Shown in pieces: positions 1,927 to 64,000 of a stretch of 64,000 nucleotides of DNA; positions within the stretch are counted from its first letter, which is position 1; every line of letters begins with the position of its first letter. This stretch comes from an uncultured virus (IMG/VR IMGVR_UViG_3300032770_000008) (taxonomy: Duplodnaviria; Heunggongvirae; Uroviricota; Caudoviricetes). Below the pieces are notes generated by a model. That model searched no databases, was not told the DNA's origin, and saw only the letters and a list, made by a program, of their open reading frames with translations. The stretch is taken from IMG/VR virus record IMGVR_UViG_3300032770_000008. One strand, 5' to 3'. The translations under genes were made by a program, and so were the position numbers.

Positions 1927-2068
1927 GTTCCTTTTTCCTTCGCTGTCGATGCGGTTGAATGATCACGAACCGCTCGACGCGGTTCCTTCTTTGATCGCCG
2001 AAGGCCCGCTCGCGGGCTTCGCGAGTCGGGCCAACGTCGCTGCGCGCGACGCTACGCAGAAAAACGAG

Positions 2069-2431
2069 CTACGGCGCCGGTGTCGCCTTCCCCTGCGCCG
2101 CCTGAACCGACGCGATGATGTCGGCGAGAAACCGTCGGCCGTAGTCGGTCAGCCGGATTCGACCGCGCCAGCGATGCGCGATCGATCGCGCGGTCGGCGT
2201 GATGACAGACGACTCGACGAAAGCGTCGACGAGCCCCTTGCCGAGAAAATAGTTGATGCGATCGATCTTGCGATCGCGCTCGGCCGCGTCGCGCGTTCCA
2301 GCCGCGTCGACGATCTCGAGGAGATCCGTATCGACGAAGAGCTCGCCGCCGCGCAGCTGGATCTTCTTGAAGAAGTCACCGTCGAAGCGCGAGGTGAGCT
2401 CGACGGTCTGCTGGATGCCCGCGTCGGTCAC
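2069..2431 (-). CDS. Hypothetical protein (possible winged-helix)
   Basis: GTG start overlaps the TGA of the upstream gene; ends in an 'IRLTDYGRRFL' wing-like motif. Confidence 0.45.
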   Translation of the reverse strand: MTDAGIQQTVELTSRFDGDFFKKIQLRGGELFVDTDLLEIVDAAGTRDAAERDRKIDRINYFLGKGLVDAFVESSVITPTARSIAHRWRGRIRLTDYGRRFLADIIASVQAAQGKATPAP

Positions 2432-2751
2432 GACGGCATCTCCAGCGCGCGCAAGAGCTGCATCGCGAGCTCCTTCGTCGTACACTCGGCCTTCGCGTTG
2501 CCCCCATCGGTGACGACGTAGATCATCTTTCCGGTCACGCCATCGATGAATTCATCGATGCGCCACGCCACGCGCGATCGCGCTGGCGCGCCGGCCGCGA
2601 TCCGATCTACCCTCCGCTTCTCTTCATGCGCCGCCTGAACCTTCGCCTCCGTGTTTCCCATGCGGCGGAAGAAATGCGCGGCCTTGTCGACGACACCATC
2701 GACGAAGTCGTAGAAACGATCGATCTCCGCGGTAGTCGAGTCCTTGGACAC
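2428..2751 (-). CDS. Hypothetical protein
   Basis: 107-aa ORF with normal composition, translationally coupled to the next gene. Confidence 0.5.
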   Translation of the reverse strand: MSKDSTTAEIDRFYDFVDGVVDKAAHFFRRMGNTEAKVQAAHEEKRRVDRIAAGAPARSRVAWRIDEFIDGVTGKMIYVVTDGGNAKAECTTKELAMQLLRALEMPS

Positions 2752-2871
2752 GAGCTTGCGAGATCCGTTCTACGGGATCCGCAAGGTGATCACGGTTGGT
2801 GAGTCGGCGTTCCTTTATGATATTGTTGCGTTCATAGGTTGTAGACAACCTACGTAAGAGAAGCGAAGACC

Positions 2872-3432
2872 ATGGTCGTTGCCACGATGTCGACCGCCAA
2901 ACGCCGCGCCCCCCAGCTCGCAAAAAATGATGACGTCGATCGCAGCGCGTACTGGGATCGCATCCAGATCGTCGACAAGCTCGGCGTATCTGTGCACGCG
3001 ATCTCGGGGTGGGAGCGTCGTGGGCTGCTCAAGCGCTACGTCGCGCTGCGCCCGGATCGCCGGGGGCACGTGCGTCCGGTGTTCGTCTACGATCCGAACG
3101 AGATCGCGCGGCTGCCCAAGCGCGAGCGCTTCGGCCTGTTCGTCGATCCGGGCGAGCTCGCCGCGCGCGCCTTCGAGGCGTTCGATGAGGGATGCACCAT
3201 CCGCGAGCTCGTCATCAAGCTGCGCCAGACGCCCCTCGTGATCGAGGAGCTGCGCGAGCGCTGGCTGAACGCCGGCGGTGCTGCGCTCGTGATCACGCCG
3301 ACAATGAAGGCCGAGCTCGAGAAACACGTCGGGGAATTCGGCGACGTGGCCGAACTCGTCGCGCAGATCACGAAGAAGATCGCCGAGAGCGTGTCGCCGA
3401 AGGACAAAACGGCGAGCGATTCGATCTCATGA
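2872..3432 (+). CDS. HTH (MerR/excisionase-like) DNA-binding protein
   Basis: 'QIVDKLGVSVHAISGWERRGLL' helix-turn-helix pattern. Confidence 0.6.
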   Translation: MVVATMSTAKRRAPQLAKNDDVDRSAYWDRIQIVDKLGVSVHAISGWERRGLLKRYVALRPDRRGHVRPVFVYDPNEIARLPKRERFGLFVDPGELAARAFEAFDEGCTIRELVIKLRQTPLVIEELRERWLNAGGAALVITPTMKAELEKHVGEFGDVAELVAQITKKIAESVSPKDKTASDSIS

Positions 3433-6991: not shown

Positions 6992-7630
6992 GGCTAGAAG
7001 GGCAGCGCCTCCTGCGAGGTCTGCGAGGTCTGAGGCGTCGCCGGCGAGCTCGCCGGCGACGGTTCTGTCACCTTCGTCGCCGCCGGCGCCGCCGGTGCGC
7101 CAACGCGCGCCGCGCGCGCGGCCGCGAGCTCGGCCCGGCACGGCGGACAGTGGATCGATCCGCCGTCATCGCCGCCGATCGTCTGGATGAAATGGCAGTG
7201 TGGCCAGGGCACGCCGGTGATGTGCTCTTGGCGCGCGCACTTCGTCCACACGTCGATCGTGGCGCCGGGGACCCACGACACGCGCTTGCCGGCACGATAG
7301 GCGCCGAGCGTGATCCCGCCATACTTGCCGTCATCGAGCGCGTGCATCGCGGCCATCTGGTGGCCTAGGGCGTTGGTCGTCACGGTGTTCCCTTGCAGCG
7401 GACACCGATGTTGAGCTGCTCGCCGAAGAAGCGGATGTAGACGTCGGCCTCGGGGACGCGCGCGCTCAGCTCGGTGACGAGCTGCCGCGCGCGCGCGAGC
7501 TCGCAGGGATGACGAGGCGAGAACAACATGCCCGTACTGAGCGTGGTCTCGTCGAGACCGAAGCCATTTCGCGCGAGGAAGAATTCGATACCGCTCCACA
7601 CGCTCGGATGACGATTCTGCAAGAACATGC

Positions 7631-19311: not shown

Positions 19312-20263
19312 GCGATCGACGCTCGCACGCAGGTCTGACGGTGAGTCTCGGCGGTCAATCTGCCGAGCAGATGCAATCACAGAAGGACAGGTCATCGCAG
19401 GCGAAGTCGCCTTCTACGAAATCGTCGCGTGCGCCGTCAACGTCGAAACGAGCGCGATCGTCACAGCGCGCGATGACGCACGGACAGATCGTGTCGTGAT
19501 CGCACGCTGACGATTCGGATCTGTCCACAACGCGATTGCGGGGCGCGTCGTCGATCGATCCACAGGACGCACAAGTTGTCCACAGAACCCTTTGGCCTGC
19601 GGATCGCGCGAGATCGCGCGCGGCCTAACTTCGCCTGACCGAGATCGCGCGAGTGAGGCAGCGCTCGCACGTGATCGTCTCGTCCGCGCGCGCTGGCGCG
19701 TCGAGCTCGATCAAGTCGAGGCACTCAGCGCACCACGCGTAGCGCGCGCACGTCGCGCACGCATTCCACACCGCGCCGTGGACGCAGCGCGGTTGGGGGA
19801 CGTAGCTCGGTACGCGGCGGCGGGACACCGAGCGAGCGTAGTGGACCGGTGTGACAGTTACACGAACTAGATCCCGCGCGTCCACGGGCCGACGATCTGC
19901 GGCGCTTCCTCGCGGCGCACGGCGCGTACGACGCCCGACCACGGCCACTGCTTGACTCGGTGCCGGAACGACTCGAACACGAGCTCGCAGCCGCTGTCGC
20001 CGGCGAGCAGCGTGATCGGGGCCTTCTCGGTGATGATCGCGGTGAAGGAGGGGGCGCCGTCGATGCGGCGCGCGCCGGGCGCCTCCCAATCGACGCGCGG
20101 CATGCCGTTGTCGAGCGATGGGATCGCGTCGGCGAGGAGACGCTCGGCGAGCTTGAGCAGATCGGTAGCTTGTCCGTCGCGACGCAGTTGCTTGATGTAG
20201 GCGCGGGCGACGGCGAGCTCGGATTCGGTCATGATGGTGTCCTCTCTTCGTTGCGCTCGACCG

Positions 20264-59533: not shown

Positions 59534-59974
59534 GACGCGGGTCCCTTGTCGACGGTGAGCTCGCCGCGCGCGGTGCGTCGCACGCACTCCCACAACATGA
59601 TCGTCATCTGGAGGAAGTTGTCCGGCGCCTCCGCGGCGGTCGGATCGACCTCGATGTAATTGGTGAGCGCGATCTTGCGCTGTCCCTCGTCGGTCTCGAT
59701 CCACATCTCCTTGATTCGCATTTAGGTCCCCTCGCGCATGCGCGCGTAGAGCGCCGCGCGCTCCTTGTCGGTCAGCTTGCTCGTCAGCCGCGCGATCGCG
59801 CCGTCGGTCGCCGACTCGATGAGTTGCGCCACGTACGTAGTGACCAGCTCGATCCGGCGCTCGCGCGCGTCGTCTCCGCGCGTCGCGACGATCTCGTCGA
59901 CGATCCGCGCGGCGAGATCTCGGATCCGTAGCTGCCGATCCATGGTAGCGTCGCCTCGCTTGATCGCCTGAGAA

Positions 59975-60241
59975 TCAAGTTTTGTGTTTCTGTTCATACT
60001 TGCTCGGTGAGTCAACTGCCGAGACACGACGGCCTCCGCTTGCTGTTGTCAAAGGCAGCTCGGCCTGATCGCCACCGACGACGGGCGGAACGGGCGCCGC
60101 GGGCGGGACCGCGGCGGCGTTGCCGAGCGCTCGGATCCAATCCGCGATCGGCTGCGCGCTCCGCCGCGCGGCGCGCTTCCAGTTCGCGAACTCGCGCGCC
60201 GTGAGCCGGATCTGAAAGGGGTGAGATCTCTTCGCGGGCAC
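59975..60241 (-). CDS. Ribbon-helix-helix protein divergent from the cas operon
   Basis: 'FQIRLTAREFANWKRAARRSAQPIADWIR'. Confidence 0.55.
   Translation of the reverse strand: MPAKRSHPFQIRLTAREFANWKRAARRSAQPIADWIRALGNAAAVPPAAPVPPVVGGDQAELPLTTASGGRRVSAVDSPSKYEQKHKT
59990..60025 (+). repeat. Orphan variant CRISPR repeat
   Basis: CTGTTCATACTTGCTCGGTGAGTCAACTGCCGAGAC shares TGCTCGG and ACTGCCGAGAC with the array repeat at the same offsets. Confidence 0.7.
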
Positions 60242-60249
60242 GTCATTCG

Positions 60250-60278
60250 CTCTTAGCGCGACGTAATTACGTTGTCAA
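60250..60278 (-). promoter_or_regulatory. Promoter TTGACA-N17-TAAGAG with 12-bp palindromic operator ACGTAATTACGT
   Basis: Palindrome 60261-60272 lies in the spacer; the RHH start follows at 60241. Confidence 0.55.
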
Positions 60279-60313
60279 TCTCCGAATGATCATGCTATGA
60301 GAGATCTCTACCC

Positions 60314-60556
60314 GTGATTTCAGCCTTCCTTTTCCAGGGCACGCTCCACGCCGTCCACGTCGTCGCTCGTTCCGGGCTCACCAAGATCGCGGTGACCGCG
60401 CTGTGCGCGGCCGCCGGCGACGCCGGCGACGGGATCTACCAGGTGCCGACGTGGGCGTTCGACGGCCGCACTTCCTACGCGACCGCGACGGCGTGCGGTG
60501 AATGTGGCAAGCGGCTGCGCGCCATGATGACGGCGCCGAAGGGAGATGGATCGTGA
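60314..60556 (+). CDS. Small hypothetical protein upstream of the Cas effector
   Basis: 80-aa ORF with H, C and CxxC residues. Confidence 0.35.
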   Translation: MISAFLFQGTLHAVHVVARSGLTKIAVTALCAAAGDAGDGIYQVPTWAFDGRTSYATATACGECGKRLRAMMTAPKGDGS

Positions 60557-60627
60557 ACGAGACCTACGGGTCGATCGCGATCTGGCTCGTCATCATCGAA
60601 CTCTGTTTCCGCTGATCAAAGGATCCC

Positions 60628-62595
60628 ATGAAGCGCAAGACCTCCGACGTCCCGACCCGGATCTACTCCTACCGCTGCCTGCCGCCTCTCACCGAGGCCG
60701 CACGCGTCGAGGATCAGTTCCGTCTCGCTCACCAGTACAAAAACGCGCTCGTCAAGATCGAGCTCGACCTGCGCGAGCGGTTTCGCGACGTCCAGCTCAC
60801 GGTGCCCCAGGTAGCGGCGGCTCTCTTGGCCTACGAGGACGCCGACGCGGCCGTCGAGAGCGCGATCGAAGATCTGCGCGCGGCCAAATCGGGCACGGCC
60901 AACCCCGATCTCGCCGCTCACCGGCTGCGGCTCGAGGCGGCCAAGGAGCTCCGCGCGCTGCGCGGAAGCGAGCTCCGCGACGCCAAGCGCGATCACGACG
61001 AGGTGTTGCGGCCCGGATACGAGGACGCCCGGAAAGGGGCGCACGCCGAAATGCTCGCGGCCCGCGCCGACTTCTCGCGCCGCGGCCTACGCCACGGCAC
61101 GTACGTGCGGATCGAGGACGCCGTCCAGCAGGCCGCGCGATCGACGAAGCGGCCCCTGCACTTTGAGCGCTACGACGGATCCGGCTCGATCGGCACGCAG
61201 CTCGTCGGCCGCGATGGACCCGAGGGCGTCCGCGGCCTGACGCTCTCCGAGCTGCACTCGTGCGTGGACACACGGCTGCGCGTGGCGGCGCTGCCGTGCG
61301 CCGGCGATGTCGTCGCGATGCCCCCGTGGGGCGGATTCGGCTCGGAAGACGTCTTCTGGAACATGCGTCGCGGCGATCGCCGGCGCGCGGCACGCGTGCA
61401 CATGTGGCTGCGCGTTGGGAGCAATCCCGATCGGTCGCCGATCTTCGCGGAGTTTCCGATCACGATGCACCGCCCGCTGCCGAAGGACGCGATCATCAAG
61501 TGGGCGTACGTCGTGCGCAAGAGGATCGGCCCGCACCTCGAGTGGCGGTTCCAGGTCACGATCGAGAGCAAGACGTTCTGCGCGCCGACCGCCGCGTTCG
61601 GCGAGGGCACCTGCGCGATCGACCTGGGCTGGCGCTGGAAGCTCGACGACGAGGGACAGTCCGTCGCGCTGCGCGCCGGCTATCTCGTCGACGACCAGGG
61701 GCGCGAGCGCGAGCTCGTCGTGCCCGAGAAGCTGTGGCGGCAGATGCCCAAGGTGTACGACCTCGCGAAAATCCGCGACCAAAACCTCGAGCGCGCGCAG
61801 CTGGCGCTCTCCGAATGGATCGCCGATCGGGGCGAGATCCCGCCAGAGTGGCAGGCCGCCGAGGAAGACGGTCGACCGAGCATGGCGGATCGGCTGCGGG
61901 GCTACGCGCAGTGGCGCGCGGCGCGCAAGCTCCAGGCATTCGTCGATCGCTGGACCGAGCGCCGGGTGCCCGGCGACGCGGCGATCTACGACCAGATCCA
62001 GGCGTGGGCGCGGCAAGATCGCCACCTCCAGGCGTGGAGCGAGCACCAGCGCGACCGGCTGATCGCGCACCGGCGCGAGGTGTGGCGCGTGATCGCCGCC
62101 GAGATCGCGCGGACGTACTCGACGATCCTGATCGAGGACGGCCGCAACGCGAACCAGACGATGCGCCTGCCGGAGATCGAGGGCTGGGAGCGGCCCGCGC
62201 CCGAAGACGGCGATCCGTCGGACGGGCGCGACCAGCGGCGGACGAACCGCCTGGTCGCCCCCGGCGAGCTCCGCGACGCGATCGTCAAGGCGGCCCACAA
62301 GACCGGCGCGAAGATCGAAGTCGAGCGCAGCGCGGGAACGACGAAGGAATGCGCGCGCTGCGGCCACACGCAGGAGCACGTCGACTTCCGCGCGCAGATC
62401 ACGTATCGCTGCGAGGGCTGCGGGGCGATCGACGATCAGGACGCCAACGCGTGCCGGAACCTGCTCAAGCGACACGGGATCGCGGGCGGCCCGGTGCCGC
62501 CGCGCGCGCCCAAGGTGCTCGCGCCGGCGAAGAGGCCGCCGGAGCTCGGCAATCACGGAGCGTCACACGCGGCAGAGACGTTCGCCGCGCCGTAG
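60628..62595 (+). CDS. cas12m: Type V CRISPR effector, Cas12m (V-U1)-like
   Basis: Motifs colinear with Cas12m as recalled: 'QFRLAHQYKNALV', long coiled-coil REC, 'RYDGSGSIGTQL', 'PITMHRPLP', RuvC-I 'AIDLGWR', RuvC-II 'ILIEDG', 'APGELR', zinc finger CARC/CEGC, RuvC-III 'DQDANA'; CRISPR array 63 nt downstream. Confidence 0.85.
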   Translation: MKRKTSDVPTRIYSYRCLPPLTEAARVEDQFRLAHQYKNALVKIELDLRERFRDVQLTVPQVAAALLAYEDADAAVESAIEDLRAAKSGTANPDLAAHRLRLEAAKELRALRGSELRDAKRDHDEVLRPGYEDARKGAHAEMLAARADFSRRGLRHGTYVRIEDAVQQAARSTKRPLHFERYDGSGSIGTQLVGRDGPEGVRGLTLSELHSCVDTRLRVAALPCAGDVVAMPPWGGFGSEDVFWNMRRGDRRRAARVHMWLRVGSNPDRSPIFAEFPITMHRPLPKDAIIKWAYVVRKRIGPHLEWRFQVTIESKTFCAPTAAFGEGTCAIDLGWRWKLDDEGQSVALRAGYLVDDQGRERELVVPEKLWRQMPKVYDLAKIRDQNLERAQLALSEWIADRGEIPPEWQAAEEDGRPSMADRLRGYAQWRAARKLQAFVDRWTERRVPGDAAIYDQIQAWARQDRHLQAWSEHQRDRLIAHRREVWRVIAAEIARTYSTILIEDGRNANQTMRLPEIEGWERPAPEDGDPSDGRDQRRTNRLVAPGELRDAIVKAAHKTGAKIEVERSAGTTKECARCGHTQEHVDFRAQITYRCEGCGAIDDQDANACRNLLKRHGIAGGPVPPRAPKVLAPAKRPPELGNHGASHAAETFAAP

Positions 62596-62658
62596 CGCGG
62601 CAGGTGCTCGCGATCGGAGCTGTATGATCGCGGCGTGACAACTGAATAGGATACTACT

Positions 62659-63495
62659 GTGATCGTGACTGCTCGGCAGGCTGACTGCCGAGACAAGGTG
62701 ATGGCGTTCGCCGTGGAGGTCAACTTCCGCGAGTGATCGTGACTGCTCGGCAGGCTGACTGCCGAGACCGGCGAACTGCTCGGGCGCCGCGTACGCTGGC
62801 GTTCGTGATCGTGACTGCTCGGCAGGCTGACTGCCGAGACGCATCGATGGTTCCGGTGTCGCGAAGCAGGAGCAAGGTGATCGTGACTGCTCGGCAGGCT
62901 GACTGCCGAGACTCCAGTTTCGCGTTGCTGACGCCCGTGGCGACGAAGCCGTGATCGTGACTGCTCGGCAGGCTGACTGCCGAGACTATCCTGGCCGAAC
63001 GGGCGGCCCTCGTATCGATCCCGTGATCGTGACTGCTCGGCAGGCTGACTGCCGAGACAAACACCAAGCTGGCTAGAATTCGATTCTTAGGGGCGTGATC
63101 GTGACTGCTCGGCAGGCTGACTGCCGAGACTTCGGCGGCTTCGCGGCAAGGTCCCTGGCCGCTTTCGGTGATCGTGACTGCTCGGCAGGCTGACTGCCGA
63201 GACGGCGATCCATGTTAGCGCACGGTCGACGAGCCCAGGCGTGATCGTGACTGCTCGGCAGGCTGACTGCCGAGACGCAAGAACGGCTTGCCGCGCCGCG
63301 GGGTCTCGGCGGCGAGTGATCGTGACTGCTCGGCAGGCTGACTGCCGAGACCCCTGGGGACCCTCGAGCACAAGAACCGTGTCGAGTGATCGTGACTGCT
63401 CGGCAGGCTGACTGCCGAGACGCGTCTTGGAGGGGTAGGAATCCTCGTCGAGAGACATTGTGATCGTGACTGCTCGGCAGGCTGACTGCCGAGAC
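62659..63495 (+). CRISPR. CRISPR array: 12 identical 36-nt repeats GTGATCGTGACTGCTCGGCAGGCTGACTGCCGAGAC and 11 spacers of 34-39 nt
   Basis: Repeats start at 62659, 62733, 62805, 62877, 62951, 63023, 63095, 63168, 63241, 63316, 63386, 63460; 8-bp hairpin CTCGGCAG/CTGCCGAG plus AC at the 3' end. Confidence 0.98.
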
Positions 63496-63710
63496 TTGCC
63501 AGGTCCGTCGCCCCCGTTCTCGGCGAGCTGACTGCCGAAACCGGCCGCCGGCCGTGCGTGTGGTGCTCATGATCGTACTTGTTCGGTGAGTTGATCGCCG
63601 AGACAGTGGGACCTTCCGCAGATCGTAGTTGCTCGGCGAACTGACTGCCGAGACGCAGAGTGGTCGATTGCACGTAAATCGCACTTGCTCGGCGTATTGA
63701 CTGCCGAGAC
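63496..63710 (+). CRISPR. Trailer of four variant repeats with short spacers
   Basis: Variant repeats end at 63541, 63604, 63654 and 63710; spacers between them are 27, 14 and 20 nt. Confidence 0.8.
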
Positions 63711-64000
63711 CCGAGCTGGCGAACGTTTTTCGCTAGTCCTACGCGATCGCGTCCTGGCCGTGCAGCCAGAGCGATCGCACGTACTCGCTCGGCCAGCCGG
63801 CGAGGATCATCTCCCAGCACGCGCGTATCCGATCGTAGTACGCCTGCGCCGCATTCTCCTCGCGCGCCGTGCGGGGGCGCGACAGCCACGGTTCGGCGCG
63901 GTGCTCCACAATCGCGAGCTCATCGCTCGAGCGGAGCTCGATCCGATCGCGGCCGCGCAAGAGCGGGACGATGTCGATCGTCACCGGGCCTCGACGAGCG

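Follow-up and report, generated by a model that had tools for sequence, protein, structure and literature searches.

Known type V systems and the locus under study

Cas12m, the effector of type V-M CRISPR-Cas systems, is a natural programmable DNA binder whose native targets are almost unknown. In the solved structure of Cas12m2 the CRISPR RNA (crRNA) consists of a 36-nt scaffold and a guide. Bases 1–7 of the scaffold are disordered, the stem, a G:A pair and the C at the very end are specifically read by the protein, and the heteroduplex of guide and target extends over 17 bp only (PMC10442227). The crRNAs of the family are 50–60 nt long, and 8 of the 8 orthologues tested bound DNA without cutting it, four of these having the D-E-D triad (PMC11013384). 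The protospacer-adjacent motif (PAM) of Cas12m2 is TTN. A preprint of September 2026 presents its phage Cas12m as the first to be reported and found no protospacers for it (10.64898/2026.09.14.751636). In a second group of type V systems, the transposon-borne Cas12k elements, the array ends in, or is followed by, shortened repeat-spacer units of processed-crRNA size whose targets are tRNA genes (bioRxiv 10.1101/2021.02.06.429022). The present analysis concerns the far end of a CRISPR array that lies next to a cas12m gene in a stretch of 64,000 nt from an uncultured virus of the Caudoviricetes (IMG/VR IMGVR_UViG_3300032770_000008). The whole of this stretch is referred to as the window.

The cas12m gene (60628..62595, plus strand) encodes a protein of 655 aa, P0001, with RuvC-like motifs and a C-terminal zinc ribbon. 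Residues 13–614 of P0001 match the Cas12m structure 23vw_A of the PDB with an E value of 3.9e-59. The Cas12m2 structures 8hio and 8hhl are matched at 1e-25, and a Cas12f1-like TNB domain (PF07282, 3.7e-09) is present. From the translation, D332, E502 and D605 lie within the RuvC-like motifs and form a D-E-D triad. On these sequence comparisons the effector is a member of the Cas12m family and the locus is assigned to type V-M. Downstream of the gene, 12 identical repeats are followed by four variant repeats with short spacers. The reading favoured here, to which about an even chance is given, is that this stretch represents the old, leader-distal end of a phage type V-M array, in which three of the variants (R14–R16) would be compacted and still-competent crRNA units.

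Conservation of the RNA scaffold in the variant repeats

The canonical array (62659..63495, plus strand) is made up of 12 identical 36-nt repeats with 11 spacers of 34–39 nt between them. It is followed, in register and on the same strand, by the variants R13, R14, R15 and R16, which are identical to the canonical repeat at 22/36, 25/36, 28/36 and 25/36 positions, respectively. The spacers between the variants measure 27 nt (S13), 14 nt (S14) and 20 nt (S15). This arrangement had been described in an original prediction made from the sequence alone and was found as described, as were the strings TCGTACTTG, TCGTAGTTG and TCGCACTTG in the variant tail and the G at position 20 in 4 of the 4 variants.

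The tail begins with a junction (63496..63541) of 23 spacer-like nt and a remnant with only the 3′ hairpin half of the repeat (63519–63541). In full register this remnant is R13 (63506–63541), which has lost its 5′ half and G13 and in which G34 is replaced by A. S13 (63542..63568) separates it from R14 (63569..63604), which has the full 8-pair stem. The next spacer, S14 (63605..63618), becomes 17 nt long when R15's first three bases, which are non-canonical, are added to it. R15 (63619..63654) has a 7-pair stem and keeps G13 and the terminal AC. After S15 (63655..63674) follows the last variant, R16 (63675..63710), with a 7-pair stem and with flanking DNA instead of a spacer behind it. From scaffold end to scaffold end the tail units are 63, 50 and 56 nt long.

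In folding, R14 adopts the 8-pair hairpin of the canonical repeat and R15 and R16 a 7-pair version in the same register; the minimum free energy structure of R13 is a different one and not the scaffold fold. The prediction that the 3′ hairpin is retained therefore holds for R14–R16 and fails for R13. All three of the former retain G13, a stem of at least 7 pairs between positions 14–21 and 27–34, A35 and C36, their 8–11 differences to the canonical repeat being confined to the 5′ tail, the loop and the top of the stem. If an equal number of differences is placed at random, these features are kept with P = 0.0019 for R14, 0.016 for R15 and 0.0038 for R16. Changes blind to the RNA fold, as expected under neutral decay, describe R13 and do not describe R14–R16. 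R13 is decayed.

Among the 11 differences of R14 from the canonical repeat are two pairs swapped on both sides, 20:28 being G-C instead of A-T and 21:27 A-T instead of G-C; two further pairs are wobbles. The other tail units and a solitary repeat elsewhere in the window, lone1 (see below), are half-changed at these positions, with G-U plus an A-C mismatch. The stem-restoring changes of R14 at positions 27–28 are absent from lone1, which is its nearest look-alike, and this speaks against the view of the tail as a set of neutrally decaying relics, as does the lack of any scaffold-breaking change in three of the four repeats despite 8–11 differences.

For comparison with the family, the six repeat types of the window were aligned with 28 repeats from six related loci, and a covariance model was built from these 34 rows; the window's own units, being among the training rows, scored 46.7 (R14), 41.9 (R16), 41.3 (R15) and 27.1 bits (R13). 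Over the 64 kb the model found the 16 units of the array and two solitary units, the best match that is not a repeat reaching 11.8 bits. A repeat profile searched with nhmmer was less sensitive than the covariance model and was not used.

A tRNA gene match for spacer S15

S15 corresponds to positions 10–29 of class-II-type tRNA genes, a span which takes in the D-arm and the start of the anticodon stem. In a scan of viral contigs with 20-mers it was found exactly (20/20) in two contigs, both matches beginning at tRNA position 10, one in a tRNA-Tyr and the other in a long-arm tRNA called Trp by ARAGORN; the 20-mers of S13, of the canonical spacer S06 and of the guides of the two solitary repeats gave no exact match in the viral contigs. 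When 50,697 phage records were searched, 24 of the 28 matching records aligned from the first base of S15 over 16–18 nt. Sixteen of these 24 fall on an annotated tRNA-Tyr or tRNA-Ser and eight are without an annotated feature there. In both of the phage records inspected in detail the match begins at tRNA position 10. Among 201 bacterial genomes of one phylum there was an exact 17-nt match at position 10 of a chromosomal tRNA-Ser. In the same genomes four matches with at most one mismatch were obtained, against three for a reversed control, and the three with one mismatch are not tRNAs. Five genomes encoding Cas12m relatives contained only non-informative S15 matches with three mismatches.

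In all five tRNA genes examined the gene starts 9 nt upstream of the match, which is 20/20 in two cases, 18/20 and 17/20 in one each, and 17/17 in another (L125; related loci and contigs are numbered in this form). It is this repeated landing at one tRNA position that gives the S15 result its weight. Positions 7–9 of the tRNA, where the PAM would lie, read TTG in three of the five genes. The S15 guide has the sense of the tRNA and would thus pair with the template strand. The search for PAM-flanked targets of the short spacers, one of the checks suggested with the original prediction, yielded tRNA genes for S15, with TTG in 3/5, and no target for S12, S13 or S14.

An origin of the tail as what is left of a tRNA gene was also considered and was rejected: on either side the match reaches exactly to the repeat and no further, and no tRNA is predicted here by ARAGORN, so S15 is taken as a spacer and not as a piece of a gene. 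The window phage's own tRNA-Ile is not a target of S15, with 9/20 positions identical in register.

Targets of the other spacers

The guides S12–S16 and those of the two solitary repeats were compared with the window itself, allowing at most three mismatches in the first 16 nt (at most two for S14; at most four in 17 nt for the second solitary repeat, lone2) and also with exact seeds of 9–12 nt. No promoter or other site within the 64 kb was matched better than chance, which goes against the idea that the short guides are directed at promoters of the phage. An 11-nt seed match of S13 at 60408, made up of G and C only, lacks a T-rich flank, and by estimate chance alone would give about 0.8 matches of this kind. 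The guides of the solitary repeats lone1 and lone2 have no target in the window, nor, as exact 20-mers, in the viral contigs. No spacer was found in common with 117 related loci, the best likenesses of 13–16/18 nt (14/17 for S14) being background; that of S14, which lies within the cas12m gene of L001, is by estimate at chance level.

Outside the tail, spacer 8 of the canonical array (63204–63240) resembles 59934–59950, with 14 of its first 16 nt and 19/37 nt overall. The matched region contains the start codon of a small gene of the phage's own (59722–59943, minus strand), and spacer 8 may target the counterpart of this gene in a related phage.

Related arrays and the age of the variants

The shared features of the last variants had originally been regarded as derived; they are not peculiar to the tail. 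In the alignment of 34 rows, CTTG at positions 10–13 is found in R14, R16 and 24 of the 28 rows from relatives, with GTTG in R15 and ACTG in the canonical repeat. G20 and A21 are found in the first two repeats of the L001 array, which stands beside the closest Cas12m for which DNA was compared (59% identity). Since ACTTG, G20 and A21 also occur in the repeats of relatives, the variants are, on the sequence evidence, better read as an older repeat type and the 12 identical repeats as a newer type at the cas-proximal end. That the cas-proximal end would be the new one is deduced from the polarity of a distant V-M lineage, in which three related contigs have their last spacer in common and show an additional unit on the cas side. 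This speaks against the variants being a dedicated second class of repeat, as had been supposed. The view of the variants as purely ancestral was itself partly withdrawn, the canonical state G21-C27 being the commonest in the 34 rows, so the picture of their age is mixed.

The same observations are what the relic explanation would draw upon, in which the variants are frozen copies of older leader-proximal repeats that are neutral and slowly decaying. The units stand at the leader-distal end, their traits recur in relatives' repeats, the distant lineage adds units cas-proximally and retains a common last spacer, and the states of loop and stem top can be placed in a series from R16 (GTAT) through R15 (GAAC) and R13 (GAGC) to the canonical repeat (AGGC).

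The stem of the family repeats shows covariation. Over the 34 repeats 95.2% of cells are paired, versus 84.2% in shuffles; five of the eight stem pairs have changed on both sides, and the covariation score was reached by none of 500 shuffles. In the L001 array (2063–3012) all 15 repeats are unlike one another, each with 6–7 of 7 pairs, and the spacers range from 8 to 67 nt. The stem states C-G, U-G and U-A alternate along this array. As far as can be judged from sequence, such alternating, compensated stems argue for a constraint acting on the units in place, since a mere succession of frozen copies does not account for them, and this counts against the relic explanation. The array of L014 (4863–6880), whose Cas12m is 50% identical to P0001, also has unlike repeats with covarying stems, and in the unlike-repeat arrays of L001 and L014 taken together spacer lengths lie between 8 and more than 300 nt. 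Judging by uneven covariance-model scores, L011 and L012 appear to resemble L001; at the far ends of the arrays of L003, L005 and L018 there are variant units whose stems are compensated. In this Cas12m clade, arrays in which the repeats are unlike and the spacers irregular and often short are therefore, on these sequences, a recurrent feature and not peculiar to the window.

Other arrangements were also seen among the relatives. L009 and L015 are contigs of 231 kb and 202 kb with a Cas12m that is 52% identical, and within 5 kb of the gene the array is absent. They contain one repeat-like unit (7457–7492, minus strand) on the opposite strand about 550 nt downstream of the Cas12m gene, and then two more direct repeats that bear hairpins. 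Relatives of Cas12m are encoded by 31 viral contigs (L087–L117), many of them of 90–200 kb.

Solitary repeats outside the array

The first of the two solitary units, lone1 (59990..60025, plus strand; 46.0 bits, a training row of the model), is a variant-type repeat upstream of cas12m and has ACTTG and TGAGT in common with R14. It is convergent with a gene for a ribbon-helix-helix (RHH)-like protein (59975–60241, minus strand; a weak NikA-like RHH match, E 0.0066) and lies past the coding part of that open reading frame (ORF), in which the G+C content at third codon positions (GC3) is 0.51 over the last 39 codons versus 0.90 over the first 50. The second, lone2 (19345..19380, minus strand; 40.1 bits, E 1.4e-9), is not a training row and is 43 kb away from the array. 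The ATG of a Pam3 gp33-like gene follows 33 nt downstream of lone2, and the stretch in which it lies is non-coding by its GC3 (0.54 vs 0.86). Both fold in the register of the scaffold. The non-coding stretch of about 230 nt around lone2 also contains three TGTGGA(C/T) motifs (19500–19600).

Among the relatives, L010 (Cas12m 52% identical) has the same RHH gene and then two units on the strand of that gene, and the record of L087 (95 kb, scanned whole) has units in its array only. The order of an RHH gene and cas12m is also present in L010. Within the cas12m gene of L010 there are moreover two 36-nt repeat-like units in frame (1822–1857 and 2731–2766, plus strand; 29.6 and 36.4 bits). These are insertions relative to P0001 and encode ..ILARSDDDRD.. 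and ..KLARSVDDRD... Behind the second of them the 12-nt sequence GCCCGAGATCGA is located at 2772 and recurs 27 nt further on (2799). Such peptides at the places of insertion were found in one of 120 homologues, namely P0039, which is the protein of L010; P0113, a further match to the regular expression, is a candidate second case.

Genome setting

The window covers 64 kb of a contig of 119,516 nt, about 55 kb of which are outside the view. Its 64 ORFs, as compared with PHROGs, encode a DNA polymerase, a primase, the large terminase, an integrase of the tyrosine type, a clamp-loader-like ATPase and a methyltransferase, and the window is thus a phage genome, with a G+C content of 67%. No families of Cas1, Cas2 or Cas4 were found among the 64 ORFs with PHROGs or among 42 of these with Pfam, and the same scans gave no Tn7-type genes (tnsB, tnsC, tniQ).

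Between the stop codon of cas12m and repeat 1 is the presumed leader (62596..62658, plus strand), in which no sigma-70-type promoter was found; a scan of 59700–64000 for promoters and terminators gave nothing useful. At the other end of the array, a 9-pair hairpin (63715..63737) is situated between the last repeat and the stop of a convergent gene (63739–63984, minus strand). This is the hairpin that had been proposed to close the unit. It exists, with −11.5 kcal/mol, and is in energy no better than chance (z = −1.12; 21 of 200 shuffles fold equally well). No terminator with a T-tract was detected in the scan of 59700–64000, which included this hairpin; possibly it acts as a terminator in both directions.

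A small ORF (60314–60556) precedes cas12m. A perfect 12-nt palindrome, ACGTAATTACGT (60261–60272), lies between this ORF and the divergent RHH-like gene and is a candidate operator. It should also be noted that a public assembly of one DNA run contains the stretch with repeat 1 joined to repeat 12, skipping 801 nt (62657–63459), which is a collapse of identical repeats. The variant tail is intact and without differences in the assembly of this run, which may be the source sample of the window. Among the runs listed as containing the stretch, none is an RNA run.

Proposed function and alternative explanations

The favoured reading, in which R14–R16 would still be competent, builds on what the sequence shows, namely its features, the folds of the repeats, the assignment to the Cas12m family and the match to tRNA genes. 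Transcription, processing, loading and binding would then proceed as follows. The array would be read through from the cas12m side, and Cas12m would bind each scaffold and cut upstream of it. The first 17 nt of a guide would pair with DNA beside a TTN-type PAM, and Cas12m would stay on the DNA without cutting and so block transcription or replication. The biological target of the R15-S15 unit would be class-II-type tRNA genes (of the Tyr or Ser type) in rival phages or in the host, where Cas12m would be led to the region of the D-arm. This target is conserved and cannot easily mutate, and that would account for the retention of so old a unit. The units of 50 and 56 nt have the size of mature Cas12m crRNA, reported as 50–60 nt. 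Compaction to about this size would fit the family, whose members can do without the repeat's first bases and without the 3′ portion of a 36-nt spacer. With only 17 nt of the guide pairing, a spacer of 20 or 27 nt would be a full-length guide and one of 14 nt a marginal one.

Several results weigh against this reading. R13 is proof that decay occurs in the tail. The random-placement test cannot separate units that are still selected from once-active copies that were recently frozen, since the repeats were also in active use when the variant and the canonical forms diverged. S14, at 14 nt, is below the 17-nt duplex, and S12, S13 and S14 gave in blastn against phages only matches of E ≥ 1 to unrelated coding genes, which are not anchored at the start of the spacer. 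For S15, an exact 20-mer match is not overwhelming on its own, with roughly 0.1–0.2 chance matches estimated per query, and the tRNA matches come from AT-richer phages and one of the 201 genomes, with no known host or rival among them. The flank is GTG in one and ATG in another of the five tRNA genes instead of TTG, and TTN is itself taken from Cas12m2 and may not be the PAM of P0001. Non-cutting by P0001 is extrapolated from its relatives, and the protein carries the D-E-D triad. A scan of genome contigs with the cas12m protein gave no sister phage in which conservation of the tail could be followed, the repeat pattern had 0 matches in the viral contigs, and no phage record was matched by the array in blastn at E ≤ 0.01.

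That the tail consists of ordinary trailer-end relics is the next most probable explanation. It is considered possible, though the less probable, and it remains a serious rival, as expression and loading are steps that the favoured reading predicts. On the relic explanation S15 would be an old spacer, once acquired from a tRNA gene on a mobile element and later shortened by deletion. The broken R13, the irregular spacer lengths, such as deletions would leave, and the lack of a target for three of the four tail spacers all fit with it, in addition to the evidence on age given above. It accounts poorly for the kept scaffolds and for the compensatory states of R14 and of the relatives' arrays, and the shortest units end near the size of mature crRNA, which is not what random shrinkage would give.

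A bolder proposal, regarded as rather unlikely, is that minimal hard-wired units at the array end and at the solitary repeats, one of them aimed at the D-arm of class II tRNAs, would silence tRNA genes of the host or of rivals by acting as a roadblock. With similarly low confidence it may be suggested that this would be the "private guide" logic of the Cas12k transposons, arisen independently in a virus. The general form of the idea, a dedicated class in which compact units and solitary repeats are private guides for a fixed task, such as silencing host or rival tRNA genes or regulating genes of the phage, apart from the turnover of the array, is judged improbable. The array-end units of the Cas12k elements, which have 17-bp spacers and target tRNA genes (bioRxiv 10.1101/2021.02.06.429022), give it a model, and the 20-nt array-end spacer with its tRNA match, the two solitary repeats with intact folds that adjoin genes and the two units behind the same RHH gene in L010 are in keeping with it. 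It is opposed by the lack of Tn7-type genes among the ORFs scanned, by the repeats being of full length and not shortened, by guides that match no site in the 64-kb window and by the one related viral contig scanned whole, which has no solitary unit elsewhere. The original prediction had further connected the short spacers with a special mode of binding only. This connection falls away, because the family binds without cutting with any guide and pairs over 17 nt, and an effector that only binds needs no special short guides to avoid cutting.

Finally, it is very improbable that the variant and solitary repeats are decoy RNAs which soak up the Cas12m of a host or rival or buffer that of the phage, since, although solitary phage repeat units are known as RNA anti-CRISPRs (PMC10651486) and the units here combine intact folds with guides that mostly lack a target, the phage itself encodes the cognate effector, the units form part of its own array, where working guides would be transcribed along with them, and S15 has a real target class.

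If the units R14–R16 are active, as in the favoured reading, phage V-M arrays would hold long-lived guides against conserved sequences beside spacers of fast turnover. The exact match of S15 to a tRNA D-arm offers a concrete and testable class of native target, and a set of scaffolds that tolerates 8–11 changes and spacers of 14–27 nt suggests a minimum size of a working unit. If they are relics, the case shows how a V-M array ages, with the scaffold outlasting the dispensable parts.

Comparison with known systems

Degenerate terminal repeats of ordinary arrays resemble the tail in their leader-distal position, in stepwise divergence and in the presence of one decayed unit (R13). They differ in that three successive units here keep the protein-binding fold, one of them with compensatory repair, and in that the spacers have been shortened to working length. 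The RNA anti-CRISPRs (Racr) are repeat mimics without a cognate effector, whereas here cas12m is encoded in the same phage. With the crlRNA, CreR and CreA systems (bioRxiv 10.1101/2024.12.27.630466) the tail shares a worn repeat and a short guide, which here too would give a Cas-bound RNA that represses by binding without cutting; the guides of those systems match a PAM-adjacent promoter in or beside the locus (type I-C), whereas none is matched in the window.

The described type V-M systems (Cas12m2, GoCas12m and MsCas12m; PMC10442227, PMC11013384) have the same effector family with a single crRNA, a 36-nt repeat with a 3′ stem and terminal AC, and no adaptation genes nearby. The present locus differs in that it is carried by a phage, in that its array has an old tail whose repeats are unlike, and in that solitary repeats occur at other places of the genome; the terms "degenerate" and "terminal repeat" are absent from PMC11013384.

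The closest precedent is that of the V-K units of the Tn7-CRISPR-Cas12k elements of Hsieh and Peters. As there, the effector is a type V protein from a non-cutting family, the units close a normal array or follow it, the spacer is near the pairing length (17 bp in those units, and here 20 nt, of which a core of 17 nt is conserved) and a target lies within a tRNA gene. The differences are equally clear. The window has no tnsB, tnsC or tniQ and its carrier is a phage with a tyrosine integrase; R14–R16 have full scaffolds of 36 nt as opposed to stubs of 13 nt, the only shortened repeat, R13, being also damaged; and a tracrRNA is not expected in type V-M. The tRNA matches detected are moreover in other genomes, whereas the V-K units match a tRNA gene beside the element's own insertion site, and they concern one of the three short spacers. 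The likeness to the atypical units of transposons that was originally proposed is borne out in the size of the units and in the tRNA genes matched by S15, and breaks down at the full-length repeats and the lack of Tn7 genes. Should the tail units be active, they would extend a principle of which CRISPR-associated transposons and regulatory crRNA-like RNAs are the only known cases. In its logic the tail stands close to the V-K units, while membership in that group fails.

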